From positions 128,970 through 192,969 of the forward strand of contig JAXMOL010000007.1 of the NCBI GenBank assembly GCA_034669905.1: 64,000 bases of DNA, read 5' to 3'. The number at the start of each line of letters is the position of its first letter. Within the stretch, counting starts at the first letter, position 1. The position numbers and the translations under genes are program-made. The notes under the pieces were generated by a model. The model saw nothing but the letters and a program-made list of their open reading frames with translations, had not been told where the DNA came from and ran no database searches. Shown here piece by piece: positions 7,682-64,000 of the stretch. This stretch comes from Candidatus Hydrogenedentota bacterium. Its GTDB lineage: Bacteria; Hydrogenedentota; Hydrogenedentia; Hydrogenedentales; JAEUWI01.

Positions 7682-7745
7682 CGTTACGGGCCTTTCCAAG
7701 GTTGTTTGCGTTACTACTCCCTTATCGACCTGAGCGAGAATTTCT

Positions 7746-8402: not shown

Positions 8403-8518
8403 TGGAGGGCTCCTTTGCCTGGGAAAGTGCGTTGCCGGATGAAACGCGGGATATGCTATGCTCGCTTCTCAATGTGCATTAGCAAGGATTATGACAAACT
8501 CCGAGAAAGGACTGCACC

Positions 8519-9709
8519 ATGTGCTTCCCGACCGCCTTCCCGACCTCCCATAAAGCCAACCCGTTGCCTGTCCTGGGAGCGGTTCTTTTTCTCCTCGTCG
8601 GCACCCTGGCCACGGCCCAGGCCGACCCCGCGCCGGGTTACACCATTCCCATTGTAGACATATCCGCGCAGACGGAGCGTCAGGTCGTGGTGGATCGGGA
8701 AGAAGGGCAATATCTTGGACATCCGACCACCGTCTTGCTGGAAGACAACACCACCATGATCGCGGTTTACCCCAAAGGCCATGGGCGTGGCCCCATCGTG
8801 ATGAAGCGCAGCACGGACGCCGGTTTGACGTGGAGCGATCGATTGCCGGTCCCTGAAAACTGGGCAAGCTCCAAGGAAGTTCCGACCATCCACCGCGTCA
8901 TTGACCCCCAGGGCGTCAAGCGATTGATCATGTTCTCCGGTCTGTATCCCATTCGTATGGCCGTTTCCGAAGACGACGGCGCCACCTGGTCGCCCCTGAA
9001 ATCTATTGGAGACTTCGGTGGCATCGTGGCCATGGGCTGTGTGGAGCGTCTGAAAAATGGCAACTATATCGCACTCTTTCACGACGATGGTCGTTTCATC
9101 AGTGGCAGTGGATCGAAGGCCGCCCCGCCCGAAGGGGGCCCTGTATTTAAGGTCTATCAGATCGAGTCCAAAGATGGTGGGCTGACCTGGGGCGGGCTTC
9201 GCGTTATCGCGACCCATCCCGAAGCCCATCTGTGCGAACCGGGTATTTTTCGTTCCCCCGATGGCAATCAATTGGCCGTTCTCCTGCGCGAGAACAGCCG
9301 GAAGTTCAATTCGTTTCTGATCACCTCCGAAGATGAAGGGGCTACCTGGTCGGAGCCCCGTCAGGTCCCGGCCTCCCTCACCGGCGATCGACACACGGGC
9401 AAATATGCCCCCGACGGCCGTCTCTTCATCTCGTTCCGGGATACCACGCGTCAGAGTCCGACCAAAGGGGATTGGGTCGGCTGGGTTGGCACCTATGACG
9501 ATATCGTCAACGGACGGGACGGCCAATACCGTGTCCGGATTATGGACAATCACAAAGGGGCGGACTGCGCCTATCCTGGCGTAGAGGTGCTCCCCGATGG
9601 AACCTTCGTGACGACGACCTATGGGCACTTTGCACCCGATGCGAAGCCCTATGTGGTCAGCGTGCGTTTCACCCTCGAAGAGTTGGATACCTTGCTGGCT
9701 ACACAGTAG
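8519..9709 (+). CDS. Secreted BNR/Asp-box repeat glycoside hydrolase (sialidase-like)
   Basis: Signal peptide. Four Asp-box motifs: STDAGLTWS, SEDDGATWS, SKDGGLTWG, SEDEGATWS. Confidence 0.8.
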   Translation: MCFPTAFPTSHKANPLPVLGAVLFLLVGTLATAQADPAPGYTIPIVDISAQTERQVVVDREEGQYLGHPTTVLLEDNTTMIAVYPKGHGRGPIVMKRSTDAGLTWSDRLPVPENWASSKEVPTIHRVIDPQGVKRLIMFSGLYPIRMAVSEDDGATWSPLKSIGDFGGIVAMGCVERLKNGNYIALFHDDGRFISGSGSKAAPPEGGPVFKVYQIESKDGGLTWGGLRVIATHPEAHLCEPGIFRSPDGNQLAVLLRENSRKFNSFLITSEDEGATWSEPRQVPASLTGDRHTGKYAPDGRLFISFRDTTRQSPTKGDWVGWVGTYDDIVNGRDGQYRVRIMDNHKGADCAYPGVEVLPDGTFVTTTYGHFAPDAKPYVVSVRFTLEELDTLLATQ

Positions 9710-9799
9710 CGGCGCGCTGCCGAATGTATCGGGCAGCCAGGAGGCCGTGTCCGCAGCCGGACACCCAACGTACACACCAAGATTACAGGCGTTAATTCC

Positions 9800-49367: not shown

Positions 49368-49443
<76 letters not shown>

Positions 49444-49460: not shown

Positions 49461-49536
49461 GCTGGAATAGCTCAGTCGGTAGAGCGCTTCACTCGTAATG
49501 AAGAGGTCCGGGGTTCGATTCCCCGTTCCAGCCCCA
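49461..49536 (+). tRNA. tRNA-Thr (CGU)
   Basis: Acceptor GCTGGAA/TTCCAGC. Anticodon loop CTCGTAA. GGTTCGATTCC T-arm. Encoded CCA. Confidence 0.88.
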
Positions 49537-50824
49537 GTAAATGCCTGCCACGAAACGACTTACATAGATAGTTGTTTTGTGGTTTTTATTTGTCTGGCCT
49601 TCGTTATCGCCCCGTTATCTTTGATTTCCGGGATTAGCCCCCTTCCTGAACTATTCCTCGCGGGTGTTTTTGCCATCTTCGACTGCTGACTTGTCTCTCT
49701 ATTCCCGACTGATTCCCTTTCCCTCCTTGGGGTGCCTGAAGGGCTTCATTCCGTCCGCTCCACTTCCTGAGACTTCCCGAGTCGACCGCCACATTCGGCC
49801 ACGAGCCGGGCAGTCATTTACCCTTCCTGGGTCGTCACGGTAGATCGTCGACCACTCCTCCTGCGGTCGTATTGAACGACAGACTATCAATCGCCCGGAT
49901 ACCGACGCAGAGAATCACCATGGCACGACTACCTGGGTCGCCTGTAAGCCCCTACAGTGAAATGTCTTAGGTATGGTTGTTTAGGTCGAGAAAACGCGTT
50001 ACGGGGCATCCTGGGGCTTCTGAGAGGGTGTGAGTTCCATTGTCAGGCGGTCTATTGCTGCGGGATTGTCTCGGGCACTTGGGTTGTGTGCTCTTGCACA
50101 TCTGCCGGAACGGATTGATGGCCCTGAAGTGGAACATGCATTTCGGAAACGTTCCTTCTTGGCCTGGACAACGCCTGGGCCCCGGAATTCATCCCAGAGA
50201 GCCTCCGTCCACAGGCCCGAACTGCCCCATGTTGCCCGTTTTTCACTGGCTGCGTGCCCCAAATGCCCGTAATTACCCTGATTTTTCGTTCCAGAGACTC
50301 CGATTTCCTTCCTGCACGTCCAATGGCACGCTTTGCCATCCTTCGAAGGGCTCAAACGGGGGTGGAGAGGAAGGCGAACCAACACAAACCGACATTTCTG
50401 AGAGAAAGGAAGCTCGCTACGCTCACGCAAGATTGGTCCAACGGGACGCTGCGGACTGGCTGCGCCAATCCTCGCTTTAGGAGATCAACCTACCGCTGCG
50501 GCACGTCTCCGCTTCGCTGCGACACGCCTCGCCTTCGGCAGGGTTAAAAGGTGTCAACAAGTTGACCGGGGGTAGGGGGGGCAGCTGCGCTTACCGGCAT
50601 AGTCAGCACCTGGATTACAAAATCTGGCAATTTTTAAGATGGGGTTTGCTGCTCGGGGTCTTCCAGTACGGAAACAGTGTGCGCACACGGGGAGTCCGTG
50701 TGCGCTCAAAGTAGCCACACCTTCCACTCCTCCTGTGGCATTCCGGCTGCGTTGACAGTCTGGGGCGGAACCCTTATCATGGCGCGATATTCTTGATTCA
50801 GGTTACGACGTAAAGGGGGAATCG

Positions 50825-51592
50825 ATGAGCGACCACAGCGAAGCACCAACAAACGAGGAACACAGTCCGTGGTTTACACAACTCTGGGTTGTCTTGGTCA
50901 TTATCGCTGTCGTCCTATTTATTCAGTGGGGTGCATGGTGTTGGATTGAGGGGCGATATCCAACAGGCGAAGAACGTGCATTCTTTGGGGATATGTTCGG
51001 GGCCGTGAACACGCTGTTCTCGGGGCTTGCCTTCTCCATTCTTGCTTGGACCATGCTCTTGCAGCGGGAAGAACTGAAGCTCCAGCGTCGTGAGCTCCAG
51101 GAAAATCGCACCGAGTTGAAACGGACGGCAGATTCCCAACGCGACATGTTGAAAATCGCAAAACAGGAACAGGCAGACCGAGAGGCCCGAGAGTACAGGG
51201 CGGCCACACTACTCTTAAGTCGTTGGAAGAGAGATGGCAATACGCTCAATAGCGATGGCGGCTTCGAGAGCTGGCGTTTTTCCGCAACGAACCTCGGCGA
51301 GGTAGTGTCCAACGTCGAACTCTCGATGGTCAGTATGTCCGGAGTTGGGAACTATGAATTCGATTGTGACCTGATAGTACCGAAAGGGGGGAAATTGGAC
51401 CTGTTGATTTGGGTGGAGCACAGCAACTCTTCGAAAGGGATTGAGAATTGGCTCTCACTGGAGTTTTTGATTAACTACGTGGATGGCAATGGCCGCAATC
51501 GGCAGCAAAAGTACGTATTGAATACTGGAGAAGAATCAATATCCTGTACACATCTGGGAATTGATGAAGAAGAAGACGTCTTTTCCGGGTAA
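50825..51592 (+). CDS. hypothetical 2-TM coiled-coil membrane protein (paralog A)
   Basis: TM1, then GDMFGAVNTLFSGLAFSIL TM2, then a coiled coil and a C-terminal beta-rich domain. About 50% GC. Confidence 0.6.
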   Translation: MSDHSEAPTNEEHSPWFTQLWVVLVIIAVVLFIQWGAWCWIEGRYPTGEERAFFGDMFGAVNTLFSGLAFSILAWTMLLQREELKLQRRELQENRTELKRTADSQRDMLKIAKQEQADREAREYRAATLLLSRWKRDGNTLNSDGGFESWRFSATNLGEVVSNVELSMVSMSGVGNYEFDCDLIVPKGGKLDLLIWVEHSNSSKGIENWLSLEFLINYVDGNGRNRQQKYVLNTGEESISCTHLGIDEEEDVFSG

Positions 51593-51660
51593 CACCCAGC
51601 TTGTGAAAGCTCTAGAGAAGACGTTGAAACAACGTTTCCGACCAAGGGGAAGAATTAACT

Positions 51661-52362
51661 ATGAAATCGAATGGGCAGCATGAGGGATTCACGCTAACCT
51701 CCAAAAAATTGGACGGATACATCGCAGCAATTGTTACGATTTGGCTCGTCGCCACGATTGGAATACCGGTCTTTTCCTGGTTGTCGCCAGACATTGAGCT
51801 TGGAGATTTCGCGTTGCTGGGGGATAGTCTTGGCACCATTAACGCCTTTTTCTCTGCGCTGGCCGTGATTGTGGTGGTGCTGAGCCTTCGACTTCAACAA
51901 AGGGAGATCGAAGAGACCTTGGCGTTGATGCGCGCCGAGCGTTCGGAAGAGAAGGACCGCCAGTTTCGTGCGGCAACACCAATCTTGATCTCCGGGAACT
52001 TTAGACATTTGAGTGAAACGGGAGGTGGTTCCGCAATGCACTGCCTGTTGACCAATAATGGCCAGACAATATTTGATCCGACGATGACCGTTTCGAACGC
52101 CGAGGACCTAGAGCATATATCGGTAGAAACCAAGGCAGATACGATCTTGCCTAACAATTCCCATATCCAGGTTATCGTAAAGCCGATGGTAGCGTCTCAA
52201 AGCCTTCCGAAACACCTCACGATTTGTTTGACCTTGCAATGTTTTGATATCGATGGGCGCAAGCGAACGCTGCACTTTGAAGGTCGGCCCGTCGTTACGG
52301 AAAAGCTGAAGCTGACTGCCTACGATTTTCTTCCTGACTGGGGTGGTGATCGAAGCGCTTAG
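51661..52362 (+). CDS. hypothetical 2-TM coiled-coil membrane protein (paralog B)
   Basis: Same architecture and shared motifs (GDSLGTINAFFSALAV, LQQREIEE, RQFRAAT) as paralog A. Confidence 0.6.
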   Translation: MKSNGQHEGFTLTSKKLDGYIAAIVTIWLVATIGIPVFSWLSPDIELGDFALLGDSLGTINAFFSALAVIVVVLSLRLQQREIEETLALMRAERSEEKDRQFRAATPILISGNFRHLSETGGGSAMHCLLTNNGQTIFDPTMTVSNAEDLEHISVETKADTILPNNSHIQVIVKPMVASQSLPKHLTICLTLQCFDIDGRKRTLHFEGRPVVTEKLKLTAYDFLPDWGGDRSA

Positions 52363-52593
52363 TCCCCATGTAAACGACCAATCCACGGGCGTAAGCAGGG
52401 GCTATCGGTGGCTGTCTTTTCCCCCGCAGGCGATGGTATCATCGCAGGCGGTTTTTATATTCGGTTGGCCGGTGTCTTTCTGGCATGTTTGTATCGGGTG
52501 AGGCGAGGGTGAGGGTGTGTGCAAGGCCTGTGCCTCTTGCGTGGGGTGGATACCGGCGGCGTGTCGGGTGTGGGCCGGTTTTTGGGAGAGCGC

Positions 52594-54147
52594 ATGAATA
52601 CGAATGGTAATGAAATTGAATCCCGCCTGTGGGCGGCGGCGGATGAGCTGCGGGCGAATTCGAAGCTGAAGTCGTCGGAGTATGCCGCCCCGGTGTTGGG
52701 GCTGGTCTTCCTCCGCTTTGCAGACCACAAGTTCCAGGTGGCGGCGAAGGAATTGGAAGGCCAAGGCGGCGGACGGCGCAAGATTGGCCCGACGGATTAT
52801 CAGGCTCAGGGCGTGCTCTATCTGCCCGAGGCGGCCCGCTTTTCCACCCTCATCCAGATGCCCGAAGGCGGCAACATCGGCGCGGCCATCAACGACGCCA
52901 TGCGCGCCATTGAGACGGAGAATTCCGACCTCAAAGATGTCCTCCCCAAGACCTACAACCGCTTTGAGAACACCCTCCTCAAAGAACTCCTCAAGACCAT
53001 GAACTCCATCCCCATGGACATCCAGGGGGACGCCTTCGGTAAGATTTATGAGTATTTCCTGGGCCACTTCGCCATGAGCGAGGGCCAGAAGGGCGGCGAG
53101 TTCTTCACGCCCACGGCCATCGTCCAGTTGATTGTCGCCATCATCGAGCCCTTCCACGGGCGCATCTACGACCCCGCCTGCGGCTCCGGCGGCATGTTTG
53201 TCCAGTGCGCACGCTTCGTCACCGAGCACCAGCAGAACCCCAGCGCGGAATTGAGCGTCTTCGGCCAGGAAAAGACGGACGAAACCGTCCGCCTCGGCAA
53301 GATGAACCTCGCCGTCCACGGCCTCAGCGGCGACATCCGCGAGGGCAACACCTACTACGAAGACCTCCACCAGGCCCCCGGCAAGTTCGACTTCGTCATG
53401 GCCAATCCCCCGTTCAACGTGGACCGGGTGGACAAAGACCGCCTTAAGGACGACCCCCGCTTCCCCTTTGGTATGCCGCGCACGGACAATGCCAACTACC
53501 TCTGGATTCAGATGTTCTACAGTGCCCTGAGCGCCACGGGCCGGGCGGGCTTTGTCATGGCCAATTCCGCCTCCGATGCGCGCGGTTCCGAGCTGGACAT
53601 CCGCCAGCAGTTGATCCAGGCCCGCGCCGTCGATGTGATGGTAGCCGTGGGCTCAAATTTCTTCTACACCGTCACCCTGCCCTGCACCCTGTGGTTCTTC
53701 GACAAGGGCAAGGCGAAGACGCCCCGCGCCGACCAGGTCCTCTTCCTCGATGCCCGCCACCTCTACCGGCAGATCGACCGCGCCCACCGCGACTGGACAC
53801 CCGACCAAATCGAATACCTCGCCAACATCGCCCGCCTCTATCGCGGCGAGGCCGTGGAAAACCTCCACGGCGGCGCCGACTTGTTGGAAGAGCACTTTGG
53901 CAAAAATCCGAAATACACCGACGTGCCCGGCCTCTGTAAGGTCGCCACGCTGGACGAAATCGAGGCCCAGGGCTGGAGCCTCAACCCCGGTCGCTACGTG
54001 GGCGTCACCGCCCGTGAGGAGGACGACTTCGACTTTCTGGAGCGCCTGGAGGAGCAGAACGAGGAGCTGGAACTTCTAAACGTCGAGGCGCGGGAACTGG
54101 AAGAGCGGATCGCGGAAAATGTGGTGCAGTTGTTGGAGGCGGACTGA
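52594..54147 (+). CDS. hsdM: Type I restriction-modification methyltransferase subunit
   Basis: HsdM_N-like start ([13 protein letters not shown]). N6-MTase NPPF motif (MANPPFN). The ATG at 52594 with a GGGAGAG Shine-Dalgarno is preferred over the track ATG at 52519. Confidence 0.9.
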
Positions 54148-55970
54148 TGACGAGAGAAGTCCAATGGACACGTAAAACGGTGCTTGACTTGCTAGAAAAC
54201 GTTATCGATTACCGTGGAAGGACGCCACCAAAATCGGATACTGGCATACCATGTCTCTCAGCCGCCAACGTCAAGGGGGGCGTCGTCACAATAAAGGACA
54301 AGTTTGTTTCCCAAGAAGTATACGAGAAATGGACAACGAGGGGTTATGTTCGTCCGGGAGATGTTTTAATAACGACTGAAGCCCCGGTAGCTGAGGTCGC
54401 TCTGCTACCTGGGGATCAGACTTATCTCATTACCCGTCGAGTTATGGCCCTCCAAGTCAACCGTTCTGTGGCAGACAACAAGTTTCTCATGTACAGTCTG
54501 CTGCTGGACGATAACAAGAAACAGCTTGAGGGACTCTCCCACGGAGCCACGGTGCCAAGGTTATTCAAGGAAGACATCTTGGACTTCAAGTTACTGGTTC
54601 CGCCCCTGGCGACGCAGCGGAAGATCGCGGCGGTCCTCTCGGCCTACGACGACTTGATCGAGAACAACCTGCGGCGGATCAAGATTCTGGAGGCGATGGC
54701 GCAGAACCTCTACCGCGAGTGGTTCGTCAAGTTCCGCTTCCCCGGCCACCAGCACGCCCGCTTCGTGGACTCCCCCCTGGGGCCCATTCCCGAGGGCTGG
54801 GAGGTGAAGACGCTGGGGGAAATCGCGACTATAACTATGGGCCTTTCCCCGAAAGGTGATACCTATAACAACGAAGGCGACGGTACGCCGTTGGTAAATG
54901 GTCCAGTTGAATTCGGCGAACGATTTACGAAACGGGTCAAATGGACAACTTCACCAAAGAAACTTTGTAGTGAAGGTGACCTTGTTGTTTGTGTAAGAGG
55001 ATCGACAACGGGAAAATACGTAAAGAGCGATGGCGTGTATTGTTTGGGTCGTGGTGTTTGCGGACTAAGCAGTGAATATCAGTGTTTCCTAGACCAACTC
55101 TTCGAGAGCGAATTGTATACTCTCCTCGGCATGACAAGTGGTTCTACGTTTCCGAGCTGGACCGGACCACAATTAAAATCTCATAAGGTGCTTGTCCCTC
55201 ATGTAAATTTGCGTGCAGAATTCGACAAAGCAATTCAACCTATGAACGCAGCGGTCTTCAAATACACGCGGAAAAATGCGGTCCTCCGCCAAACCCGCGA
55301 TCTCCTCTTGCCCAAGCTCATCTCTGGCGAACTGGACGTATCCGAGCTGAACATCACCGTCCCCGAGGAGCTGGCCGCCAGCCCCGCCCCTTTGGAAGAC
55401 ACCGGTAGCCCGGCGCAGGTAACGGCACCCAAAGCGAGCCCCGCCCCCGCCCCGAAGGCCGCCGAGGAACCGGAAGCCTACAGAGAAGGCGACACGGAAG
55501 CCCCCACGGCCCCGCGCCCCATTGAGGACTGGGACACCGACGACGTGATGGCGGCCTTCCGCCAGGCCGCCCGGAAGACGGGCCAGACGGACCGCGCCAC
55601 CCTCCTCAAGGCCGTGTCCCGTGAACTGGGCTATGGCCGACTGGGTCCGAAGATGAAGACCGTATTGAAAGGGCACCTCAAGGCCGCCATCCGCCGTCAC
55701 ATCATCGGCACCGACGGCGGTGCCACGGTGTGGCCCGAAACGGTCACCATGGACGAATTCGAGCGCGACGAGCTCGTGGCCACCTTCCGTTCCGTCATGA
55801 AGAAGGGCCCCCGCTACGACCGGGAGGACATCCACCGCGCCGTCGCCAACTACCTCGGCTTCCGCCGCCTCACCGAAAGCGTAAAAGCCCCCATCAAGTC
55901 CGCCATCAACGGAGCGATAAGGCGGGGTGTGCTGGGTTATGAGGGAGATGTGTTGTGGCGGGAAGAGTGA
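54147..55970 (+). CDS. hsdS: Type I R-M specificity subunit with ~200-aa C-terminal extension
   Basis: Two target-recognition domains flank conserved LPPL..Q..I...L and central repeat helices. Residues from about 405 form a Pro/Ala-rich linker plus a basic helical domain of unknown function. Confidence 0.85.
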   Translation: MTREVQWTRKTVLDLLENVIDYRGRTPPKSDTGIPCLSAANVKGGVVTIKDKFVSQEVYEKWTTRGYVRPGDVLITTEAPVAEVALLPGDQTYLITRRVMALQVNRSVADNKFLMYSLLLDDNKKQLEGLSHGATVPRLFKEDILDFKLLVPPLATQRKIAAVLSAYDDLIENNLRRIKILEAMAQNLYREWFVKFRFPGHQHARFVDSPLGPIPEGWEVKTLGEIATITMGLSPKGDTYNNEGDGTPLVNGPVEFGERFTKRVKWTTSPKKLCSEGDLVVCVRGSTTGKYVKSDGVYCLGRGVCGLSSEYQCFLDQLFESELYTLLGMTSGSTFPSWTGPQLKSHKVLVPHVNLRAEFDKAIQPMNAAVFKYTRKNAVLRQTRDLLLPKLISGELDVSELNITVPEELAASPAPLEDTGSPAQVTAPKASPAPAPKAAEEPEAYREGDTEAPTAPRPIEDWDTDDVMAAFRQAARKTGQTDRATLLKAVSRELGYGRLGPKMKTVLKGHLKAAIRRHIIGTDGGATVWPETVTMDEFERDELVATFRSVMKKGPRYDREDIHRAVANYLGFRRLTESVKAPIKSAINGAIRRGVLGYEGDVLWREE

Positions 55971-56131
55971 TGTGGCGACTCTTGCTCTTTCAATACCTAG
56001 AGCCGTTAGCCAATTAACCCTAGAAATGAGAGTAGAGTTCAATGCTCAAGGGAAAGTGTAAAGAGTCTCGGAGTAGGCTACGTGAAGACACTCCGGATGC
56101 GACAGGCTCAGTTTAGGCCCAAAACGATCTT

Positions 56132-56920
56132 ATGTACGGAGGCACAATGGTTCCATTTGAAGATGACAATACAAAGGCCTATGTTTATCTCTTGCGAATC
56201 GAAATTGCCCTACGAGAGCTTCTTCGAGCTTCGCTCGAATCCGAATTCGGGCAATCCTGGAGAAAAAGGCTCCCTGGCGAACTGTTGAAAAAGATCAAAT
56301 CTTCGCAGTCAGAAGAGCATCGTCCCCAGTTTGATTTCGTCCGTTTGGGGCCGCTCTACTACTTGACATTTGGAGAATTACTTATCCTTCTTAAACAAAA
56401 ATCGGGGCAATCCGTAGCTCAACGTTTGGGTGGAGATGGAATCCTTAAGCAACTAGAATGTGTCTTCTCGCCACGCAATGCGATTTGCCACTCGCGACCT
56501 GTATCGTCGGTAGGGTTACAAGCAATAAGCTTGCTCTATGTTGAGATAGAGACAGCACTTTCAAAGGAGGTCTTGGTCCAGCTCGTATCGCAACCAGATA
56601 CGGGGCTCACTCAAGTCGATGTTGCCAAGGGCCTCGTTCCCGCCCTCAAAAACTTCATGGCCGATTTGCCAAATCTACCGTCCACACTCCCGGTTCCTGA
56701 AGCGTTTGTAACTGCGAAGAATCAGTTCTGGTGGGCGGACGATGAGCTTGCTGGATTCGATCGTTCACGAGTCGAAGCCGTGATTGGCCTGGTTCGTGAC
56801 TACAACAACCTTCCTGTTGGTGTTGGATCTGCTGGAACACGACTCACATTCTGCGAGCGGAATGCCCTCAAAGAACGGATTAAAGACGCAATAGCCGAGT
56901 TGGAGAGTACGACACTATGA
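56132..56920 (+). CDS. Swt1-like HEPN domain protein (predicted RNase)
   Basis: FGQSWRKRLPGELLKKIK...FGELLILLK...LKQLECVFSPRNAICHSRPV matches the Swt1-HEPN layout with an R-x4-H motif. About 48% GC. Confidence 0.6.
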   Translation: MYGGTMVPFEDDNTKAYVYLLRIEIALRELLRASLESEFGQSWRKRLPGELLKKIKSSQSEEHRPQFDFVRLGPLYYLTFGELLILLKQKSGQSVAQRLGGDGILKQLECVFSPRNAICHSRPVSSVGLQAISLLYVEIETALSKEVLVQLVSQPDTGLTQVDVAKGLVPALKNFMADLPNLPSTLPVPEAFVTAKNQFWWADDELAGFDRSRVEAVIGLVRDYNNLPVGVGSAGTRLTFCERNALKERIKDAIAELESTTL

Positions 56921-59196
56921 GTCAGCAAAAAAAACAAAAACTCCCTCCAAACCCATTCAAACTCAAACCAATCAGAAATCTTGAGGACTTGGCAGGGCGT
57001 TCACAGGAGCGAAAGAAGATACGATATTACCTAAATCTTACTGCCTCGGGGGATAGTCCGCACTTGGCCTTGATCGGGCAGAGAGGTGTGGGCAAGACGA
57101 GTTTACTCAACGGGGCAGAGTCTATCGCAAGAGAGTTGAAACTACATCCAGTACGCTTGGACATGAACGAGCTGAAGGCAGAATCTCCAGGGAGGTTTTG
57201 GCAGGACTTGTACCAGGGTTTGGCCTTGTCAATGGCCAAAGTAGGATGTTGGGGTGGTGAGCAGGGAAAACTCTATGGTGAACTCTTAAGAATGATTCAC
57301 TCTCGACAACCAGGAGATATCGAGAATGCAGTAATACAGATTCCGTACCTATTTTCATGCCACCAAGGAGACATAGACAGTTTTGAATGTCCGGATGCTC
57401 TCGTGGTCAACGATATTAATATCTGTTTAACGGAGTTGAAGACTAAAGGGTTTGCCGGCATCGCTTTGCTAATTGATGAAGCCGATTGCTTGGGTAAGAA
57501 CGTTGCGCTAATTCAGATGTTCCGTAATATCTTTCAAGCCGTCGAGGGCTGCTCTCTGGTCCTGGCGGGAACCGAGGCTGTGTTCCCGTCACTATCGGAA
57601 GTTTTTTCGCCGATTCCGCGACAGTTTCATCGAATTGATGTGAAGCCATTTGCCGACATGTCGGATACGATGGAACTAGCTACCAGACCTCTTCGGGAGG
57701 CGGACAGTCGAATTCTTCCAGATTTCGAGTCATGCAAAGAGTTACACGCGCTGTGCGGGGGGGCACCTGATGAAATCCAACTCTATTGCCATCACATGTA
57801 TCGTAGCGTAGAGGATGACTCCTCCGAGTCAATGACTCTGTCGCCACAGGTTTTTCGCGAAGTGCTTTGCGCGTACCGTGCGAACACTCCAGAAAACCTC
57901 GACTCAGTCCTAAACGCAATTGAACGATTGCCGGACAGACTGCTATTTCGCTCAAGGTGGGTGTCACGAAGGGAACTGACGCTTGAAGAGAATATTCAGG
58001 TTACAACGCTAATTGCCGAACTTGATGATAGTGAAGAACTACTAGAGGAAAAAAAGAAGCAAATTTCCGAAGAGATTTCCGAGGGGTATCAAATCCTTTT
58101 TAATGCTGGGATTACCAGTGCTAGCAACCGTATTCGGCTTGCGGGAACCCCCCTAACTTCGGGGTTCTGGAAGTCATTTGTTAAGGCGGAAAGAAATGCG
58201 AAGTGGTCTTGGAACGACAATTCCTTCGCAGAGAACTTGGAACGCATATTTGCTCGTGCGATAAACAAGACCTGCGGACAACTACCTATTATCAATATTC
58301 CCCAAAAGGATGATGCTATCAGGAAATTGGCCAAACTTCGCGAGGGAAAATCTGTCAGTGAGATTGATGATGCTTTTGGGGCGCTCCTATTCACTTGCCT
58401 TATCGCCCGAGAAACCAATGCTACAACGGCTGTTGACTTGGGCCTTGAAATGGAATCTTGCTTCGGTCGCCGAAACTTTGTGGTGCGATTACTTGAGACG
58501 AAGGGAACAAAACTCCAAAAGGACGCGGTCATCCGATGGCTAGATACTCGAAAGTCGATGCTTGACGACTACCGAATCTCTCTATCACTCACACAATTTG
58601 AGCATTGGACAGTTCCTACGAATGAAGAATTGCATAGACTCGGGAGACTTTCGGGACATCAGTTTTTTCTAGACGAATTCGGACCGTCAGAAATGGAGAT
58701 TGCGGTCGATAAGTTTGGGTCTGGAGACGTCCAAGGTTGTATCGATCTGTTCGAACGAATGCTTGCAGACAAGGAAGATCCCCACATCCGAAATAACTTG
58801 GCTTTCTGTCAAATAGTCACCGGGAATATTCAGGATGGACTAGAAAATGCCGACCGAGCACTTCAAGTCGATAATCTTCCACTTTTTGAATTGAATAAGG
58901 GAGTCGCAGAGATCCTTTTGGGCGATTCTGAGTCGGGGCTTGAATCTCTACGTCACGCACTTGAGCGACTCCGTTCGTTAGATGATCCGGACGCTTTCGA
59001 AGCTAGTTACAATATGGTTATTTCGGAGAATGGCGTCGAAGTAAGTTGTCATGAGAATCTGCCTGTTGACGCTGCGCTCCTACTAAATCTCTATCGAATT
59101 GGTGAGCTATCGGAATCAGAACTACAGGAGGAATTGAGCAGAAGGAATCCCGACAGTGTTTCTGATTGGATGGCCATCGTGCTCGGGCCTAAGTAG
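56917..59196 (+). CDS. AAA_16/STAND-type P-loop NTPase with C-terminal TPR-like repeats
   Basis: LAGRSQERKKIRYYL then Walker A GQRGVGKTS. Walker B ALLIDEADCL. C-terminal helical/TPR repeats. 4-nt overlap with the HEPN gene. About 47% GC. Confidence 0.7.
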   Translation: MSQQKKQKLPPNPFKLKPIRNLEDLAGRSQERKKIRYYLNLTASGDSPHLALIGQRGVGKTSLLNGAESIARELKLHPVRLDMNELKAESPGRFWQDLYQGLALSMAKVGCWGGEQGKLYGELLRMIHSRQPGDIENAVIQIPYLFSCHQGDIDSFECPDALVVNDINICLTELKTKGFAGIALLIDEADCLGKNVALIQMFRNIFQAVEGCSLVLAGTEAVFPSLSEVFSPIPRQFHRIDVKPFADMSDTMELATRPLREADSRILPDFESCKELHALCGGAPDEIQLYCHHMYRSVEDDSSESMTLSPQVFREVLCAYRANTPENLDSVLNAIERLPDRLLFRSRWVSRRELTLEENIQVTTLIAELDDSEELLEEKKKQISEEISEGYQILFNAGITSASNRIRLAGTPLTSGFWKSFVKAERNAKWSWNDNSFAENLERIFARAINKTCGQLPIINIPQKDDAIRKLAKLREGKSVSEIDDAFGALLFTCLIARETNATTAVDLGLEMESCFGRRNFVVRLLETKGTKLQKDAVIRWLDTRKSMLDDYRISLSLTQFEHWTVPTNEELHRLGRLSGHQFFLDEFGPSEMEIAVDKFGSGDVQGCIDLFERMLADKEDPHIRNNLAFCQIVTGNIQDGLENADRALQVDNLPLFELNKGVAEILLGDSESGLESLRHALERLRSLDDPDAFEASYNMVISENGVEVSCHENLPVDAALLLNLYRIGELSESELQEELSRRNPDSVSDWMAIVLGPK

Positions 59197-59223
59197 ACAA
59201 ACGATTCAAGGGCAGCATTCAAT

Positions 59224-62200
59224 ATGTCTTATACTTACAGCGAAGACGCCCTGGTGGAACAACCGGCGATTGCCCTGCTCGGGGAACTGGGTTGGGAGAC
59301 GATGAACGCCTATCAGGAGTTTGCCCATGGGGCGAGCGTGCTGGGCCGGGAAACCCGGAATGAAGTCATCCTGACACAACGGTTGCGTCCGGCGTTGGAG
59401 CAGTTAAACCCGGAGTTGCCCCCGGCGGCCATCGATGAAGCCGTGACGGCCCTGCAACGGGACCGCTCGCGCATGAGCCGGGTGGCGGCCAACAAGGAAA
59501 TTTACCACGCCCTCAAGAATGGGGTCCGTGTCACGGTTCCGGACCCCGAGGGGGACGGCGAGATGGTGGCCTTGGTGCGGGTGGTGGACTGGGACATCCC
59601 GGAAAACAATGACTTTCTGCTTTGCTCTCAACTTTGGGTCGCAGGCGAGATGTATACCCGTCGCCCGGACCTCGTGGGCTTCGTCAATGGCCTGCCCCTG
59701 CTCTTTATCGAGCTGAAGGCGGCGCACAAGGGGCTGGAATCGGCCTATAAGGGCAATCTGCGGGATTACAAGGACACTATCCCCCACCTCTTCTGGGCGA
59801 ACGCCCTGATTATCCTTTCCAACGGCAGCGAAAGCCGCCTGGGGAGTGTCTCGGCGGGTTGGGAACACTTTGCCGACTGGAAGAAGATTGGCAGCGAGGA
59901 AGAGACCGCGACGATTTCCCTGGAGACCATGTTGCGGGGAACCTGCGCGCCGGAGCGCTTTCTGGATATTGTGGAGAACTTCACCCTCTTCCAGGATGTG
60001 CCGGGCGGTCAGGTGAAGCTGGTCTCGAAGAACCACCAGTATCTCGGTGTGAACAGCGCCCTGGAAGCCTTGGCGAACGTGCAGGAGCGGGGCGGGCGTC
60101 TGGGCATATTCTGGCACACCCAAGGCAGCGGCAAGAGTGTGTCCATGGTCTTTTTTGCCCAGAAGGTACTCCGCCGGGTTCCCGGCAACTGGACCTTTGT
60201 CGTGGTGACCGACCGCAAGGAACTGGATACCCAGATTTACAAGAATTTCGTCTCGTCGGGCGTGGTCACCGAGGAAGGTGCCCAGGCCACGAGCAGCGCA
60301 GGCTTGCGGCAACTCCTCGCGGAAGACCACCGCTATGTCTTCACCCTGATTCATAAATTTCGGACGGAGCCGGGCACGGCGCACCCCGTGCTCTCTACGC
60401 GTAGCGATATTATCGTCATTGCCGACGAGGCCCACCGGAGCCAATATGACACGATGGCGCTGAACATGCGCACGGCGCTGCCCAATGCCGCCTTTCTGGC
60501 CTTCACCGGCACCCCCCTGATTGTGGGCGAGGAAAAGACGCGGGATGTCTTTGGGGACTATGTCAGCGTCTACGACTTCCGCCAGTCGGTGGAAGACCGG
60601 GCCACGGTTCCGCTGTATTACGAGAATCGCATTCCCGAGCTCCAGTTGGTGAATGAGCATATCAATGAAGACATGGAACGCCTGCTGGAAGACGCGGAGC
60701 TCGACGAGGAGCAGGAGAAGAAGCTGGAGCGGGAGTTTGCGCGGGAATATCACCTGATTACGCGGGACGAGCGTCTGGAGGCCGTGGCCAAGGACCTCGT
60801 GGACCACTTCATTGCGCGGGGATTCCAGGGCAAGGCCATGATGATCTGCATCGACAAGGCCACGGCGGTGCGGATGTATGACAAGGTACAGCGGGCGTGG
60901 GCGGAGCGGCTGGCGGAGGCGGAGGCCGATTTTGACGCGTGGTGTGAGCTGCCCGGCTACGTGATGGGCCCGGAGGAGGAGCCCCCCGAATTGCAGCATG
61001 AGCAGGCGCTGAAGGACCGGATACGTTCGCTCAAGGAGATCGACATGGCGGTGGTGGTGTCGCAGGCCCAGAATGAGATTCGGGATATGAAGGCGAAGGG
61101 GCTGGATATCCTCCCCCACCGGAAGCGCATGGTGGAGGATGACCTGGAAACGAAGTTCAAAGACCCGAAGGATGATCTCCAACTGGTTTTTGTCTGCGCC
61201 ATGTGGATAACGGGCTTTGACGTGCCGAGTTGTTCCACGCTCTATCTGGACAAGCCTATGCGGAACCACACGCTCATGCAGACGATAGCGCGGGCCAACC
61301 GCGTCTTTGCGGGCAAGGTCAACGGGTTGATTGTGGACTATGCGGGGGTGTTCCGAAACCTGGAGAAGGCCCTGGCCATCTATGGCGGAGGTGGTGCCAC
61401 GGAGGGCGGCGAGGACGCAGGTGGTGGGAATCCGGTGGCCGATAAGGGCGTGCTGGTCACGGCGCTGACAGAGGTGATTGCGGAGACCCGCGCCTTGTGC
61501 GAAGAACACGCGGTGGACCTTTTGGCCATCCATGAAGCCGAGGGCTTTGACCGTATCAAGTTAATGGAGGATGCTGTCGAGGCGCTGTTGGTAACTGAAG
61601 CTGTAAAGCGGCGCTACCTGGACCTTTCAAACGGCGTGAAACGGCTCTATAAGGCCATCTTGCCCGATGATTCGGCGGAGGCCTTCGCGGGGGATGTGTT
61701 TGCTATTCAATACGTCGCCGAAAAGATTCGGGCCAAGACCGAAGCGCCGGACATTTCGAGTGTGATGCAGGATGTGGAGGAGCTGCTGGACCAATCCATT
61801 GCCACGGAAGGCTATGTGATTCGCGAAGGCAAGGCGGACTACGGCGAAGAACACTGGATCGACCTGAGCAATGTGGACTTCGACGCGCTTGCTGCCCGGT
61901 TCAAAATCGGGCGCAAGCGAACGATGAGCGAGCAGCTCAAGGTAAGCGTCGCGCAGAAGGTTATCGACATGGTGCGGCAAAACCGGACCCGCATCGATTT
62001 CATGGAGCGTTTCCAGGCGATGATTGATGCCTACAACGCGGGCAGTCTGAATGTCGAAGAATTCTTTAGCCAGTTGGTGGCCTTTGCCCGGAGCCTGGAT
62101 GAGGAAGAACAACGGGGCGTAAGCGAAAACCTGACTGAAGAAGAACTGGTCATCTTTGACCTGTTGACGAAGCCTGCTATTGAGCTGTCGGAAAAGGAAC

Positions 62201-62445
62201 GGGAGAAGGTGCGGTCGGCGGCCCGGGAAATGCTGGAAACGCTCAAGGCGGGCAAGCTGGTCCTTGATTGGCGCAAGCGGCAACAATCACGGGCCGAAGT
62301 ACGCGTGGCCATTGAGACCGTACTGGATGCGCACCTGCCGAGAGCCTACACGCCGGAGCTTTTCGAGCAGAAAGCCACGGAAGTCTTTCAGCACGTCTAC
62401 GAAGCGTACTACGGGGCGGGGCGCGGTGTGTATTTTGGCGCGTAG
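59224..62445 (+). CDS. hsdR: Type I restriction endonuclease subunit
   Basis: HsdR_N (FIELKAAHKG). SF2 helicase motifs (WHTQGSGKS, DEAHRSQ). C-terminal DUF3387-like region. 1073 aa. The 709-aa antisense ORF 59404-61533 is an artefact. Confidence 0.92.
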   Translation: MSYTYSEDALVEQPAIALLGELGWETMNAYQEFAHGASVLGRETRNEVILTQRLRPALEQLNPELPPAAIDEAVTALQRDRSRMSRVAANKEIYHALKNGVRVTVPDPEGDGEMVALVRVVDWDIPENNDFLLCSQLWVAGEMYTRRPDLVGFVNGLPLLFIELKAAHKGLESAYKGNLRDYKDTIPHLFWANALIILSNGSESRLGSVSAGWEHFADWKKIGSEEETATISLETMLRGTCAPERFLDIVENFTLFQDVPGGQVKLVSKNHQYLGVNSALEALANVQERGGRLGIFWHTQGSGKSVSMVFFAQKVLRRVPGNWTFVVVTDRKELDTQIYKNFVSSGVVTEEGAQATSSAGLRQLLAEDHRYVFTLIHKFRTEPGTAHPVLSTRSDIIVIADEAHRSQYDTMALNMRTALPNAAFLAFTGTPLIVGEEKTRDVFGDYVSVYDFRQSVEDRATVPLYYENRIPELQLVNEHINEDMERLLEDAELDEEQEKKLEREFAREYHLITRDERLEAVAKDLVDHFIARGFQGKAMMICIDKATAVRMYDKVQRAWAERLAEAEADFDAWCELPGYVMGPEEEPPELQHEQALKDRIRSLKEIDMAVVVSQAQNEIRDMKAKGLDILPHRKRMVEDDLETKFKDPKDDLQLVFVCAMWITGFDVPSCSTLYLDKPMRNHTLMQTIARANRVFAGKVNGLIVDYAGVFRNLEKALAIYGGGGATEGGEDAGGGNPVADKGVLVTALTEVIAETRALCEEHAVDLLAIHEAEGFDRIKLMEDAVEALLVTEAVKRRYLDLSNGVKRLYKAILPDDSAEAFAGDVFAIQYVAEKIRAKTEAPDISSVMQDVEELLDQSIATEGYVIREGKADYGEEHWIDLSNVDFDALAARFKIGRKRTMSEQLKVSVAQKVIDMVRQNRTRIDFMERFQAMIDAYNAGSLNVEEFFSQLVAFARSLDEEEQRGVSENLTEEELVIFDLLTKPAIELSEKEREKVRSAAREMLETLKAGKLVLDWRKRQQSRAEVRVAIETVLDAHLPRAYTPELFEQKATEVFQHVYEAYYGAGRGVYFGA

Positions 62446-62485
62446 TGGATTGTATAAAGAAAAGAACATTCTGGGAGTTTAGTGC

Positions 62486-62665
62486 GTGTCGATAATTCTG
62501 ATGCTCAATATGAAGGGTGGCGTGGCAAAGACGACCAACGCCGTGGCGATTGCGGAGTGCCTGGCGGACCAAGGGCGAAAGGTGCTGGTGATTGACGCCG
62601 ACCATCAGTGCATGGCGAGTGAGCTCTTAATTGGGGAAGACCGGCTTCTTCGGTGTGAGAAGTGA
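62486..62665 (+). pseudogene. truncated ParA/MinD-like ATPase (N-terminal 59 aa only)
   Basis: Deviant Walker A MKGGVAKTT...VLVIDADHQ followed by an early stop. Confidence 0.5.
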
Positions 62666-63186
62666 AGAGGATCGCTCTGTTTGTGTCATCCGCCTCTACA
62701 CGGGTCAAAACTGCCGATAGTCCCTGCCTGAGAACTGTCCACTGCACTTGAGTAAACCTTATCCGTAAACCTTAGCATTAGTAGTTCAGAGCTTTTCAGG
62801 TATCCGTAGGTAATAGAGAAGGGGGGAAGTGGAGTCGCGTATTTATGTACTTCAAGTGCCATAAGCCTCCGAAACTTGGTCCCCATGGGTTGTCTTGCGG
62901 CTTTTGCGTAGTCTTCAGGTCTTGAGCAAGTAAAACGGTAGCCTATCTAGAGTAATGATTTATCGGAGTTATAAGTCGAGTGGTGAATGCTTGAGAATAT
63001 TTTCAGGACCTTCCCCAATAAATCGTAGTCTTTTTCTGTAAGTTCCTTTCCCCCAGTCACCTACCGGTGTGGAGAAGTGGAACGGGCATTTTTTGGGTAA
63101 TGTTTATAAGATTTGAAGCGGACTCCTCTTTGGGTCAGAATTTGGTTGTCAAAGGCCTAAGTCTAACCCTACCAAGGAGCCCGCCC

Positions 63187-63711
63187 ATGAATAGTAGCAA
63201 GATTGCCTTCAATTTGCGCAAGCGTATCGGTCGTTTTTCGGGTAATGTCTCTAAGAGCCTTTGTTTACCGGCCCAACACTTCGTCGGTGATATGGTTTAC
63301 GGGATTCAGGCGTCGCAGTCGGTGATGCTCTCGGAAGTGGGAAGGGCGTTGGAGGAAGATATCGCGATGATTAAGACGGAGGAGCGTCTTTCACGCAATC
63401 TACAGCGCCCTGACCTGGAAGATACGGTTCAGGACAATGTAATGGCCATGGCAGCAGGGCATATCGGCCAGGACACCCTACTCATTATTGACCCAAGTGA
63501 TATCACCAAAAAGTACGCCAAAAAGATGGAGTATCTGTCGACCGTTCGTGATGGGAGCGCGCACGATTTTGGTCAGGGTTACTGGACGTTGCATATTGTG
63601 GGAACCGACCTGGATTCCAAGAAGATCGTGCCCTTGTATCAACGGTTAAGAAGTGGACCCCGAAAACTGGACAGTGCGTTAAGTGTATCTCCTGACGTAT
63701 TCTTTCAATGA
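63187..63711 (+). mobile_element. IS4-family (IS10-like) transposase N-terminal fragment
   Basis: LLIIDPSDITKK...DGSAHDFGQGYWTLH matches the IS10 LVVDWSDIREK first-Asp region. The rest of the DDE domain is absent. Confidence 0.5.
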
Positions 63712-63724
63712 AGGAGATAGAAAT

Positions 63725-64000
63725 ATGCGACGTAAACGACGGAATCATGCCCCGGCATTTAAGGCAAAAGTAGCGTTGGCGGCTTTGTCCGAAGAAGGCA
63801 CCTTGGCAGAGTTGGCGGAACGCTTTGATGTACACCCGAACCAGGTGAAGCAGTGGAAACAGCAGCTTTCTGAGCAAGCGGTTGGTGTCTTTGACTCGAC
63901 GGATGACACTCGTCGGTTGAACGAGGCCGACACGGAAAAGCTCCACGCCAAGATTGGACAGCTGACGCTTGAAAATGATTTTTTAGCCAAAGCGCTCGGG
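63725..64000 (+). mobile_element. IS3-family transposase orfA (HTH), partial at window end
   Basis: AAGGAG Shine-Dalgarno. Encodes [48 protein letters not shown]...[15 protein letters not shown] (Transposase_8/IS3 OrfA pattern). Confidence 0.7.

Follow-up and report, generated by a model that had tools for sequence, protein, structure and literature searches.

Textbooks describe Type I specificity subunits as two-TRD proteins, and we know of no accepted model in which they carry an accessory domain. In the Type Ic enzyme EcoprrI, the slot between hsdS and hsdR is occupied by prrC, and the enzyme holds the PrrC anticodon nuclease latent; the prr region was reportedly treated by Tyndall et al. 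in 1994. Precedents for autoregulation of restriction-modification (RM) systems are provided by C (controller) proteins and by HTH-bearing autoregulatory Type II methyltransferases. The layout of HsdS was given in a 2025 review as TRD1-CR1-TRD2-CR2 (PMC12707154), and the C-terminal repeats of certain giant proteins have been described as tandem wHTH domains of ~65 aa (Anantharaman et al. 2013, PMC3710099).

The window analyzed here is the whole stretch of 64,000 nucleotides taken from a Candidatus Hydrogenedentota bacterium (contig JAXMOL010000007.1). It carries a Type I locus with the following features:

52594..54147, + strand: hsdM, 517 aa, N6-adenine methyltransferase subunit (N6_Mtase, E 1e-84; HsdM_N, E 5e-22; PADLOC MTase_I, E 3e-227)
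54147-55970, + strand: hsdS ORF, an uninterrupted frame of 607 aa
54147..55361, + strand: HsdS core, residues 1-405, with TRD1, central conserved helix, TRD2 and distal conserved helix (LLPKLISGELDV)
55362..55517, + strand: acidic Pro/Ala/Glu low-complexity linker, residues 406-457, a predicted flexible tether
55518..55739, + strand: winged helix 1 (predicted), residues 458-531, with cap motif PIEDWDTDDV upstream of Met468, LGYGRLG turn and basic helix 3 (..HLKAAIRR)
55740..55970, + strand: winged helix 2 (predicted), residues 532-607 plus the stop codon, with LGFRRLT turn, helix 3 ..SAINGAIRRG and wing ..GYEGDVLWREE
56132..59196, + strand: variable slot for cargo genes, after the hsdS tail and before hsdR (context only)
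56132-56920, + strand: ORF262, 262 aa, with an RxxxxH HEPN-like motif
56917-59196, + strand: ORF759, 759 aa, a P-loop ATPase (AAA_16/AAA_22 below cut-off)
59224..62445, + strand: hsdR, 1073 aa, restriction/translocase subunit (Pfam HSDR_N, SWI2_SNF2, T1R_D3-like and T1RH-like_C; PADLOC REase_I, E 1e-182)

The hsdM stop codon overlaps the hsdS start. Ahead of hsdM, a hairpin with a T-run at ~52424-52455 resembles a terminator for the preceding ORF.

The HsdS core has the expected anatomy of a Type I specificity subunit, with two TRDs (Methylase_S) split by conserved helices, and it shares its locus with hsdM and hsdR genes that gave strong Pfam and PADLOC matches. Pfam Methylase_S matched in two stretches (E 1e-20), the PDB entries 3okg/5ybb matched at E 9.5e-28, and PADLOC Specificity_I profiles aligned in their entirety (E 6e-69; in an example alignment, residues 8-400 correspond to profile positions 5-399 of 403). 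All of these, together with PDB 1yf2, end at about residue 400-410, in agreement with the preliminary description, which had placed the end of the canonical protein near residue 405. A specificity subunit of this type should end soon after the distal helix, at ~400 aa, whereas the window protein continues for 212 residues beyond LLPKLISGE. Among the 91 closest HsdS homologues that bear this distal-helix motif (the query counted in), 75 have 15 or fewer residues after it, and only 5, the window protein being one of them, have more than 200. The C-terminal extension of ~200 aa that had been noticed at the outset was thus recovered at the same coordinates (residues ~406-607, nt ~55362-55970).

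The extension consists of two parts of opposite charge. The linker (residues 406-457) is rich in Pro, Ala and Glu, contains 15 Asp and Glu residues vs. 4 Lys and Arg residues, and has a pI of 4.05; its modeled part (residues 441-450) has a mean pLDDT of 51. A/E/P-rich linkers of 54-121 aa (median 74) precede the same module in 25 other fusions. After this ~50-aa linker comes a basic C-terminal part of 150 aa (pI 10.2, against 9.4-11.5 in 13 homologues), with 27 Lys and Arg residues in the span 468-607. A Pro/Ala linker followed by an Arg/Lys-rich domain, as first described, is therefore an accurate outline. The same holds for the high GC content said to set the extension apart from the TRDs: GC3 is 0.80 in the linker and 0.84 in the module vs. 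0.59 in the HsdS core, with values of 0.845 for HsdM and 0.76 for HsdR.

Structure prediction gave a confident fold for the module (AlphaFold, mean pLDDT 96), which consists of two tandem winged helices. The order H1-b1-H2-H3-b2-b3 occurs twice: DSSP assigned H2-11, b14-15, H16-26, H34-49, E53-55 and E60-63 to the first repeat, and H73-83, E89-91, H92-102, H110-125, E129-132 and E135-138 to the second. The first winged helix, with the topology H-b-H-H-b-b, was modeled at pLDDT 93-97, and the N-terminal cap region upstream of Met468, whose motif PI[DE]xx[DE]TD[DE]VM is conserved across homologues, is also structured (pLDDT 71-93). Over 64 aa the repeats share 34% identity (E 8e-12), and the first has a pI of 11.4. 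In 33 homologues, L103, G104, F105, R107, I124, R125, G133 and R138 are invariant (numbered with Met468 as 1), and each repeat has conserved Arg residues at three places: the helix 2 N-cap, the HTH turn (LG[YF]xR) and the helix 3 end. The domain had initially been taken as basic and helical; it is basic, but it is not purely helical, as both repeats carry beta-hairpin wings.

Comparisons with solved structures gave weak matches throughout (E >= 0.01). The best Foldseek match was the cullin WHB domain 3o6b_H (TMt 0.75, rmsd 2.9 A), and other top matches were the tandem-WH proteins Nse1/3, SelB and JetB. A profile search of PDB sequences with the module family found no homologue of solved structure. 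Assignment to the KITE tandem-WH proteins (Nse1/Nse3, ScpB, MukE, JetB) was considered and rejected, as these matched only weakly (E 0.013-0.09, TM 0.3-0.35, rmsd ~15 A); no SMC or kleisin genes adjoin the module at the loci examined.

We considered whether the long frame could be an artefact, in which a sequencing frameshift or lost stop had joined hsdS to a small gene that follows it and no real fusion protein exists. Homologues of the module are often called as separate ORFs of 139-140 aa, and frameshifts visibly break some related loci (L005, L001-L004). Against this, the HsdS-linker-module arrangement is unbroken at the orthologous locus L013, at three further loci (L025, L042 and L043) and, among the 67 long database representatives that bear the module, in 34, and the structured, conserved motif PIExxxTDDV precedes the Met taken as the start of the short ORF. 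Many of the short calls are therefore truncated ones; upstream of the short module ORFs at L001, L005 and L006, either the called start trims off this motif or the upstream gene is split from the ORF by a frame break. In the window, an internal start at Met468 is preceded by no convincing ribosome-binding site, only by a GAGG ~19 nt upstream, and by no promoter-like site. The protein collection contains a single entry identical to the 607-aa protein (NCBI source, 193-kb contig). Since the architecture is continuous in the L013 operon and recurs in no fewer than 34 independent clusters formed at 50% identity, a frameshift or lost stop was excluded, and we regard an artefactual fusion as having next to no likelihood. 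Nor is the extension a frame that merely happens to be open in GC-rich sequence. It is genuine coding sequence, because its homologues reach E = 8e-54, a profile search with the module collected 963 clusters at E <= 1e-3, and its fold was modeled with the confidence given above.

A domain search of the extension found no Pfam family at threshold. DUF3320 (PF11784) did not match the window module even at E <= 10, whereas 8 of 33 module relatives gave sub-threshold matches, at E 9.7e-4 in the best case, and a long representative reached E 3.4e-5. The window module does not reach the gathering threshold and is a distant relative of DUF3320, at the superfamily level only. All 33 family members matched PDC-S37 (best 5e-12), and 18 of the 33 matched the NCBIfam anti-phage profile ProA. 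In the window, the C-terminus of PADLOC PDC-S37 (profile positions 1478-1542 of 1550) aligned with module residues 68-134 at E 2e-7; for ProA, positions 1738-1879 of 1903 were covered, with 16.8 bits vs. a cut-off of 1500. Membership in either group of giants was rejected, as only the last ~65-140 positions of these ~1550- and 1903-position profiles match, which identifies a shared domain. In the literature we found nothing on "ProA", and papers on DUF4011 were not relevant. The family merits a domain model of its own, as kin to DUF3320 that DUF3320 does not capture.

The module occupies the extreme C-terminus of the fusions, with a median of 1 residue following it. Among loci from species-representative genomes (MAGs), it is borne by HsdS at L013 and L025 and by DrmMI-type methyltransferases at 7 loci. 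PADLOC confirmed the order DrmMI-module-DrmA-DrmB of class 1 DISARM. At L006, L009 and L010 it is a separate small ORF directly 3′ of the specificity-bearing gene, and overall the link to the methyltransferase or S protein varies: fused, with one stop between, or with an overlapping start. Between drmMI and the module there is an in-frame stop at L010-L012 and a change of frame at L001-L004 and L006. The module can thus be linked either covalently, at the C-terminus, or through a small gene that follows directly, both to HsdS of Type I RM and to DrmMI of class 1 DISARM, and many 139-aa "hypothetical proteins" beside drmMI or hsdS belong to its family. The suggestion that a formerly separate gene had been fused to hsdS is borne out by these small ORFs and by the many HsdS and DrmMI fusions. 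HsdS-borne modules share a mean of 50% identity among themselves and a mean of 50% with DrmMI-linked ones, some nearest neighbors cross the two contexts, and identity is 50-68% across phyla. The module is also carried by kinases, TIR, ASCH-helicase and Schlafen-type proteins.

Close HsdS relatives mostly lack the module, and the tail is optional: it is missing in ~95% of the closest HsdS homologues, and the same operon lineage occurs without it at L045 and L046. Because the PADLOC DrmMI profile (1347 positions) stops before the module, it is optional on DrmMI too. Where present on HsdS, it is found with two HsdR types (T1RH-like_C and EcoEI_R_C). The preliminary description had allowed that the tail might be a common, known HsdS-associated domain; it is indeed shared, by a minority of HsdS proteins, and it matches no described HsdS-associated domain. 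An HsdS wHTH extension was likewise not described in the literature that we searched. Taken together, these data identify a mobile, partner-independent module that is repeatedly attached to TRD-bearing proteins of adenine-methylation-based immune systems.

Beyond the established anatomy, fold, repeat structure, distribution, fusion/fission pattern and optional nature of the module, we tentatively propose that the tail binds nucleic acid and so anchors the methylation/specificity complex, on a flexible tether and independently of the partner; DNA as the ligand, and the consequence of binding, we infer. The disordered acidic linker of ~50 residues would tether two basic, DUF3320-like wHTH domains to the HsdS core, and the twin wHTH would bind nucleic acid independently of the TRD target sequence. 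As a flexible second DNA anchor, it could raise the local concentration and residence of M2S1, and hence of R2M2S1, on DNA. The tail would be dispensable for the core enzyme, since close relatives work without the module. Nucleic-acid binding is suggested by the pI of the module and by conserved Arg residues at wHTH contact positions, and homology to the wHTH repeats of nucleic-acid-acting giant defense proteins appears to favor it further. That the ligand would be independent of the partner is supported by the equal likeness of HsdS and DrmMI modules, the presence of two HsdR types, and cargo that is unrelated or absent. A regulatory, DNA-binding or interaction module had been suggested at the outset; the extension is a discrete domain whose winged-helix fold and basic charge fit DNA binding or interaction.

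Several observations count against a DNA anchor. Winged helices also act as protein-protein modules, and the cullin WHB, Nse1/Nse3 and JetB fold matches are of the protein-binding kind. Basic charge alone is no proof of DNA binding, and the adjoining acidic linker could mask it. Conservation of 50-68% across phyla exceeds what non-specific backbone binding usually needs, and the ligand may therefore be specific and conserved; occurrence on kinases, TIR, ASCH-helicase and Schlafen-type proteins fits a generic adaptor equally well. The tethered twin winged helix might dock onto a protein and not onto DNA, the candidates being HsdR, DrmA/DrmB, a second methyltransferase complex (oligomerization), a host replisome or nucleoid protein, and the adjoining cargo effectors. 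Both the fold matches to protein-binding tandem-WH proteins and the high conservation would suit a conserved protein ligand, and the fusion/fission pattern implies physical cooperation with the methyltransferase or S protein.

The genes next to the tail bear on the docking of cargo effectors, for which EcoprrI and PrrC would be a model. In this lineage, six Type I loci (window, L005, L013, L023, L042 and L043) have extra sequence after the tail, and in five of the six genes were called there; PIN and HEPN genes follow the module at the DISARM locus L009. In the window, the cargo ORFs have a GC3 of 0.47-0.48, the slot contains a PDC-M34B match (E 1.4e-6), and neither ORF262 nor ORF759 has relatives at any other tail-bearing locus; ORF262 and the 262-aa HEPN_RiboL-PSP protein of L009 have only the RNAIxH motif in common (E 0.001). 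The slot holds unrelated genes at L013, L042 and L043 and also at the tail-less L045, while L025 has a tail without cargo. The orthologous system at L013 (HsdM 83% and HsdR 72% identical to those of the window at the aa level) keeps the tail with different TRDs and neighboring genes: the central conserved region of hsdS (54592-54802) is 90% identical in nucleotide sequence and the TRDs gave no nucleotide match. A tail-cargo link as a rule was rejected, as the cargo is different at each locus, has no relatives elsewhere, accompanies the tail-less HsdS of L045 and is missing at L025. Docking onto a system-encoded partner is also at odds with the occurrence of two HsdR families and DISARM helicases, which leave no single such partner in common, and with the strongly basic module and its Arg residues at classical wHTH DNA-contact positions. 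We consider a protein-docking role possible, though on the unlikely side.

A more specific ligand could be the modification state of DNA. The twin winged helix would then recognize N6-methyladenine-containing, hemimethylated or unmethylated DNA in a sequence-independent manner, and would serve the adenine methyltransferase complex in read-write (maintenance) methylation or in a self/non-self check. The two main partners come from systems of N6-adenine methylation (HsdS with an N6_Mtase HsdM; DrmMI as an Eco57I/MmeI-type methyltransferase), a ligand common to both would explain partner-independent conservation, and winged-helix domains that read m6A are documented in DpnI and EcoKMrr (PMC12707154). 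The module has no detectable sequence similarity or specific fold similarity to those domains, however; proteins without a methyltransferase (kinases, TIR and helicase proteins) bear the module as well, the related DUF3320 repeats are borne by helicase-nucleases, and the argument is drawn purely from context. A reader of this kind seems quite improbable. The broader possibility, that the twin winged helix is a plug-in reader/anchor interchangeable between Type I RM and class 1 DISARM, which recognizes a system-independent feature (DNA methylation state or a host replisome/nucleoid component) and thereby directs maintenance methylation or self/non-self discrimination, is speculative and also improbable, if slightly less so.

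The wHTH is the commonest fold of bacterial transcription factors, tandem repeats could read a direct repeat, and RM systems often need expression control; the pair might therefore bind an operator in the operon promoter and set RM expression. A crude comparison of the sequences ahead of three systems (those of the window, L013 and L025) gave no shared 10-mer and 9-mers at chance level, and upstream of hsdM there is no notable inverted or direct repeat, a short hairpin excepted. Unlike operator-specific regulators, the module hardly changes between unrelated operons and protein types, and its place at the extreme C-terminus of giant enzymes, behind a long linker, is atypical for regulators. 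Autoregulation is very doubtful.

Whether it acts as the DNA anchor that we propose or otherwise, a highly conserved module on a DNA-specificity component, present in hundreds of sequence clusters and common to DISARM DrmMI, points to a layer, so far unstudied, at which methylation-based immunity makes contact with DNA or with partners, with possible roles in target search, maintenance methylation or coupling to other factors. The reader/anchor reading, if true, would describe a prokaryotic read-write module that works fused or in trans. As the module is small, confidently folded and dispensable in relatives, its role is directly testable.

Compared with described systems, residues 1-405 of the window protein share TRD1-CR1-TRD2-CR2 with canonical Type I HsdS (3okg/5ybb and 1yf2; EcoKI and EcoR124I), and the operon order hsdM-hsdS-...-hsdR is the same. 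The additional linker and two winged helices (~200 aa) have no counterpart in solved HsdS structures. As in EcoprrI-PrrC, where an effector gene lies between hsdS and hsdR, the slot in the window holds an unrelated low-GC HEPN-like ORF and a P-loop ATPase; this likeness concerns the neighbors and not the tail, and the cargo varies and also stands beside a tail-less HsdS. DpnI and EcoKMrr likewise place a winged helix on an enzyme of a methylation-based restriction system, a possible analogy for a reader (PMC12707154), but theirs are single domains on nucleases that read defined contexts, whereas the window module is a tandem without sequence match or specific fold match to them. Giants of the DUF3320 type (MTES_1575 type, PDC-S37 and ProA) resemble the window protein in having two wHTH repeats of ~65-70 aa at the extreme C-terminus; their hosts are helicase/REase proteins of >1500 aa, in contrast to HsdS or DrmMI. 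In DrmMI of class 1 DISARM, which belongs to another immune system and has an unrelated TRD/methyltransferase architecture, the same module is either fused or encoded as a small ORF between drmMI and drmA; it is 50-68% identical to that of the window, shares its linker and its PIExxETDDVM motif, and takes the same place as in HsdS, directly after the TRD-bearing protein.

Residues up to ~405 of the HsdS protein form an ordinary core, and the extension that follows breaks the canonical architecture, which a 2025 EcoSal review still gives as TRD1-CR1-TRD2-CR2 (PMC12707154). The genes discussed here are:

49368-49443, tRNA-Phe(GAA)
49461-49536, tRNA-Thr(CGT)
52594-54147, hsdM (Pfam and PADLOC)
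54147..55970, + strand, hsdS ORF of 607 aa, within the Type I RM operon
56132-56920, ORF262, 262 aa, with an RNAICH (RxxxxH, HEPN-like) motif; PADLOC PDC-M34B, E 1.4e-6
56917-59196, ORF759, a P-loop ATPase of 759 aa; AAA_16/AAA_22 below cut-off, weak TPR
59224-62445, hsdR (Pfam and PADLOC)

In every model (Pfam Methylase_S; PDB 3okg/5ybb/1yf2; full-length PADLOC Specificity_I profiles) the HsdS match ends at residue ~400-410. Among the best 120 homologues from a 5.8-billion-protein collection, the distal helix (LLPKLISGE) was recognisable in 91, query included; 75 of these 91 end no more than 15 residues past it, and only 5, the window protein among them, continue for more than 200. Because the models stop at this point and few homologues go on, the extension placed at nt ~55360-55970 by the preliminary description is real, correctly located and unusual for HsdS.

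An orthologue of the system was identified in an FCB-group MAG (L013), with HsdM 83%, HsdR 72% and the basic C-terminal domain of the tail (hereafter the module) 69% identical to those of the window, and with different TRDs and inserted genes. Further hsdM-hsdS(tail) operons are present in L042, together with hsdR, and in L043, whose contig ends before hsdR. The preliminary description had allowed for a frameshift or lost stop; the tail on the orthologous HsdS of L013 shows that the fusion is not an artefact. A sequencing error that merged hsdS with the tail is an extremely improbable source. Prosthecobacter (L045) and Desulfovibrio (L046) have operons of this lineage whose HsdS proteins are >50% identical and lack the tail, and the tail is therefore accessory and not needed by the core enzyme.

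At the nucleotide level the window and L013 hsdS genes form a mosaic, with 90% identity in the central conserved helix region (54592-54802 vs L013 9024-9234; hsdM, 80%) and no detectable similarity in either TRD, a pattern that fits putative recombination between conserved segments that swaps the TRDs. In L013, a second copy of the final ~75 nt of hsdM lies immediately before hsdS (8499-8572 vs 7302-7380), and a 406-aa ORF with no function assigned is inserted between hsdM and hsdS, flanked by the duplicated hsdM ends. This duplication resembles the trace left by an insertion or a recombination.

The composition reported for the tail holds: linker residues 406-457 are acidic (pI 4.05), module residues 468-607 are basic (pI 10.2), and GC3 in both (0.80 and 0.84, respectively) agrees with that of hsdM (0.845) and hsdR (0.76), not with that of the HsdS core (0.59) or cargo genes (0.47). 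An AlphaFold2 model of the module built on 33 homologues (pLDDT 96, pTM 0.86) shows two successive canonical winged helices, each H1-b-H2-H3-b-b, so that the basic helical domain first proposed stands as a discrete, confidently predicted domain, with its fold revised. The halves are homologous to each other (34% identity, E 8e-12). Foldseek returned only generic winged-helix or tandem-WH matches (cullin WHB, TMt 0.75; Nse1/Nse3; SelB; JetB), all at E >= 0.01; viral structures gave no specific match, and a profile search of PDB sequences gave none. In a second model, which took in 27 extra upstream residues, the conserved acidic motif P-I-E-D-W-D-T-D-D-V directly before Met468 belongs to the fold (pLDDT 71-93) as a short turn and N-terminal extension of helix 1, and the chain upstream is disordered (pLDDT ~51), which places the domain boundary at about residue 458 and leaves a linker of about 50 residues. 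Arg residues are conserved in both repeats at the helix 2 N-cap, the HTH turn (LG[YF]xR) and the helix 3 end, the classical nucleic-acid-contact positions of wHTH domains.

A module profile search of 1.84 billion representatives recovered 963 clusters at E <= 1e-3, of which 120 reach E <= 1e-30. In the best 148, the module is nearly always the last element (median 1 residue after) and follows a low-complexity linker of 54-121 aa and a PI[DE]xx[DE]TD[DE]VM motif. Methylase_S (HsdS) was found in 34/67 and MmeI_TRD in 5/67 of their representatives of at least 300 aa, and single representatives carry kinase, ASCH plus helicase, TIR, Schlafen/AlbA_2 or other conflict-system domains. One of the few non-C-terminal cases is a metagenomic protein of 1143 aa (P0095), in which an N-terminal ASCH domain is followed by the module (residues 175-309), a ResIII/DEAD helicase with a TerB-like region and a zinc-ribbon-like C-terminal end. 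Species-representative genomes, all of them MAGs, carry the module as a fusion with HsdS in L013 and L025 and with Eco57I/MmeI-type adenine MTases in L014, L016, L017, L019, L021, L028 and L032; phyla with fusions include Planctomycetota, Acidobacteriota, Gemmatimonadota, Verrucomicrobiota and Firmicutes. These MTases are DrmMI, with DrmA and DrmB as neighbours (PADLOC), and the loci are class 1 DISARM. Positions 19758-19815 of L025, which lie downstream of its HsdS-tail gene at a distance of ~9.5 kb, match the module's 3′ part (79% identity across 58 nt) and could mark another module-bearing gene in that locus.

Many first-search matches were "stand-alone" module proteins of 139-140 aa. In the loci examined these lie directly after drmMI (L001-L004, L006-L012) or hsdS (L005), and the junctions form a continuum from fusion to fission. 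In L001-L004 (L001 ~7700-8060) the module is in frame with the conserved DrmMI C-terminal motif GPSLxxGDDDD and the frame breaks upstream, in a G-run; in L010-L012 (L010 2700-2840), from three different metagenomes, a single in-frame stop parts the two; and in L009 the module start and the DrmMI stop overlap. In L006 (~900-1000) there are stops 17 codons before the called Met, yet the conserved PIDQLDTDDI is still encoded there, upstream of that Met. In L005 an HsdS-tail fusion has been assembled with many frameshifts. The irregular junctions in DISARM loci could reflect fission, errors of assembly or recoding.

In the window's Type I lineage, the gap between hsdS and hsdR serves as a slot for variable cargo. 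ORF262 and ORF759, the two unrelated ORFs that fill it in the window, overlap by 4 nt and are low in GC (GC3 ~0.47); ORF262 has no Pfam match, and neither has relatives in the other loci fetched. The pair looks like embedded abortive-infection-type cargo, and its slot is that of prrC in the EcoprrI locus, between hsdS and hsdR. Elsewhere the slot contains:

L013, 10438-12968, a 366-aa protein and a SLFN_AlbA_2/HATPase_c_4 protein
L042, 7099-8112, a 337-aa protein
L043, 2910-4721, a DUF7380/EMARD_N protein
L045 (tail-less), 9221-10825, a 534-aa protein
L046 (tail-less), empty

Adjacent paralogues with N-terminal hydrophobic segments (50825-51592 and 51661-52362; 23% identity, E 2e-12), both matching phrog_8999 (no assigned function), sit between the tRNA genes and hsdM at GC ~0.51, below the flank. 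The tRNA genes are directly upstream of a lower-GC block with the RM operon (0.544 for 50000-64000 vs 0.594 to the left), consistent with a tRNA-associated genomic island.

The tail is found with T1RH-like_C HsdR, with EcoEI_R_C HsdR and with DISARM helicases, and the downstream cargo of tail loci is variable, unrelated or missing; it follows no system-encoded partner. With no common encoded partner, a role as a protein-docking adaptor, suggested by the fusion/fission logic and by WH analogues that bind protein, appears rather unlikely. HsdS-attached modules have a mean identity of 50% to DrmMI-linked modules and 50% among themselves, and some nearest neighbours cross contexts, which indicates either that the module has been shuffled repeatedly or that it is under a constraint that does not depend on its host protein. 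A methylation-state reader would suit hosts that are both adenine-methylation systems (Type I RM, DISARM), and wH domains reading m6A exist (DpnI, Mrr; PMC12707154), but the module has no specific similarity to the DpnI/Mrr wH and also occurs on proteins without a methyltransferase, making this improbable. Transcriptional autoregulation by the tail is more doubtful still; no shared operator-like k-mers above chance were found in the upstream regions of three systems, and no notable repeats upstream of hsdM. The most economical model, which we favour tentatively in view of the conserved Arg residues, the basic pI, the flexible tether and the relationship to wHTH pairs at the C-termini of helicase-nucleases, is that the tail would anchor the methylation/specificity complex to nucleic acid irrespective of sequence, in cis or in trans.

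Literature searches, incomplete in coverage, found no description of an HsdS or DrmMI winged-helix tail; what is new here is that specificity subunits of two methylation-based defence systems recurrently carry an accessory module that has gone unannotated. The tail is a real, conserved and experimentally tractable feature, and it amounts to an added domain, not to a new system. Domain searches gave it no Pfam family at threshold and did yield local matches. DUF3320 was the commonest sub-threshold Pfam match among module relatives (8/33), 33/33 matched the PADLOC candidate defence protein PDC-S37 over its final ~65 positions (best E 5e-12; window 2e-7), and 18/33 matched the C-terminus of the NCBIfam "anti-phage protein ProA". 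The homology is local only, and the tail domain formally belongs to none of the three. Together with the pair described next, these matches place the tail, as one of its divergent members, in a known wHTH superfamily of defence proteins that is functionally uncharacterised. Giant MTES_1575-type proteins carry a C-terminal pair of ~65-aa wHTH domains "overlapping DUF3320" (Anantharaman et al. 2013, PMC3710099), and the window tail has exactly such a pair, likewise at its C-terminus.
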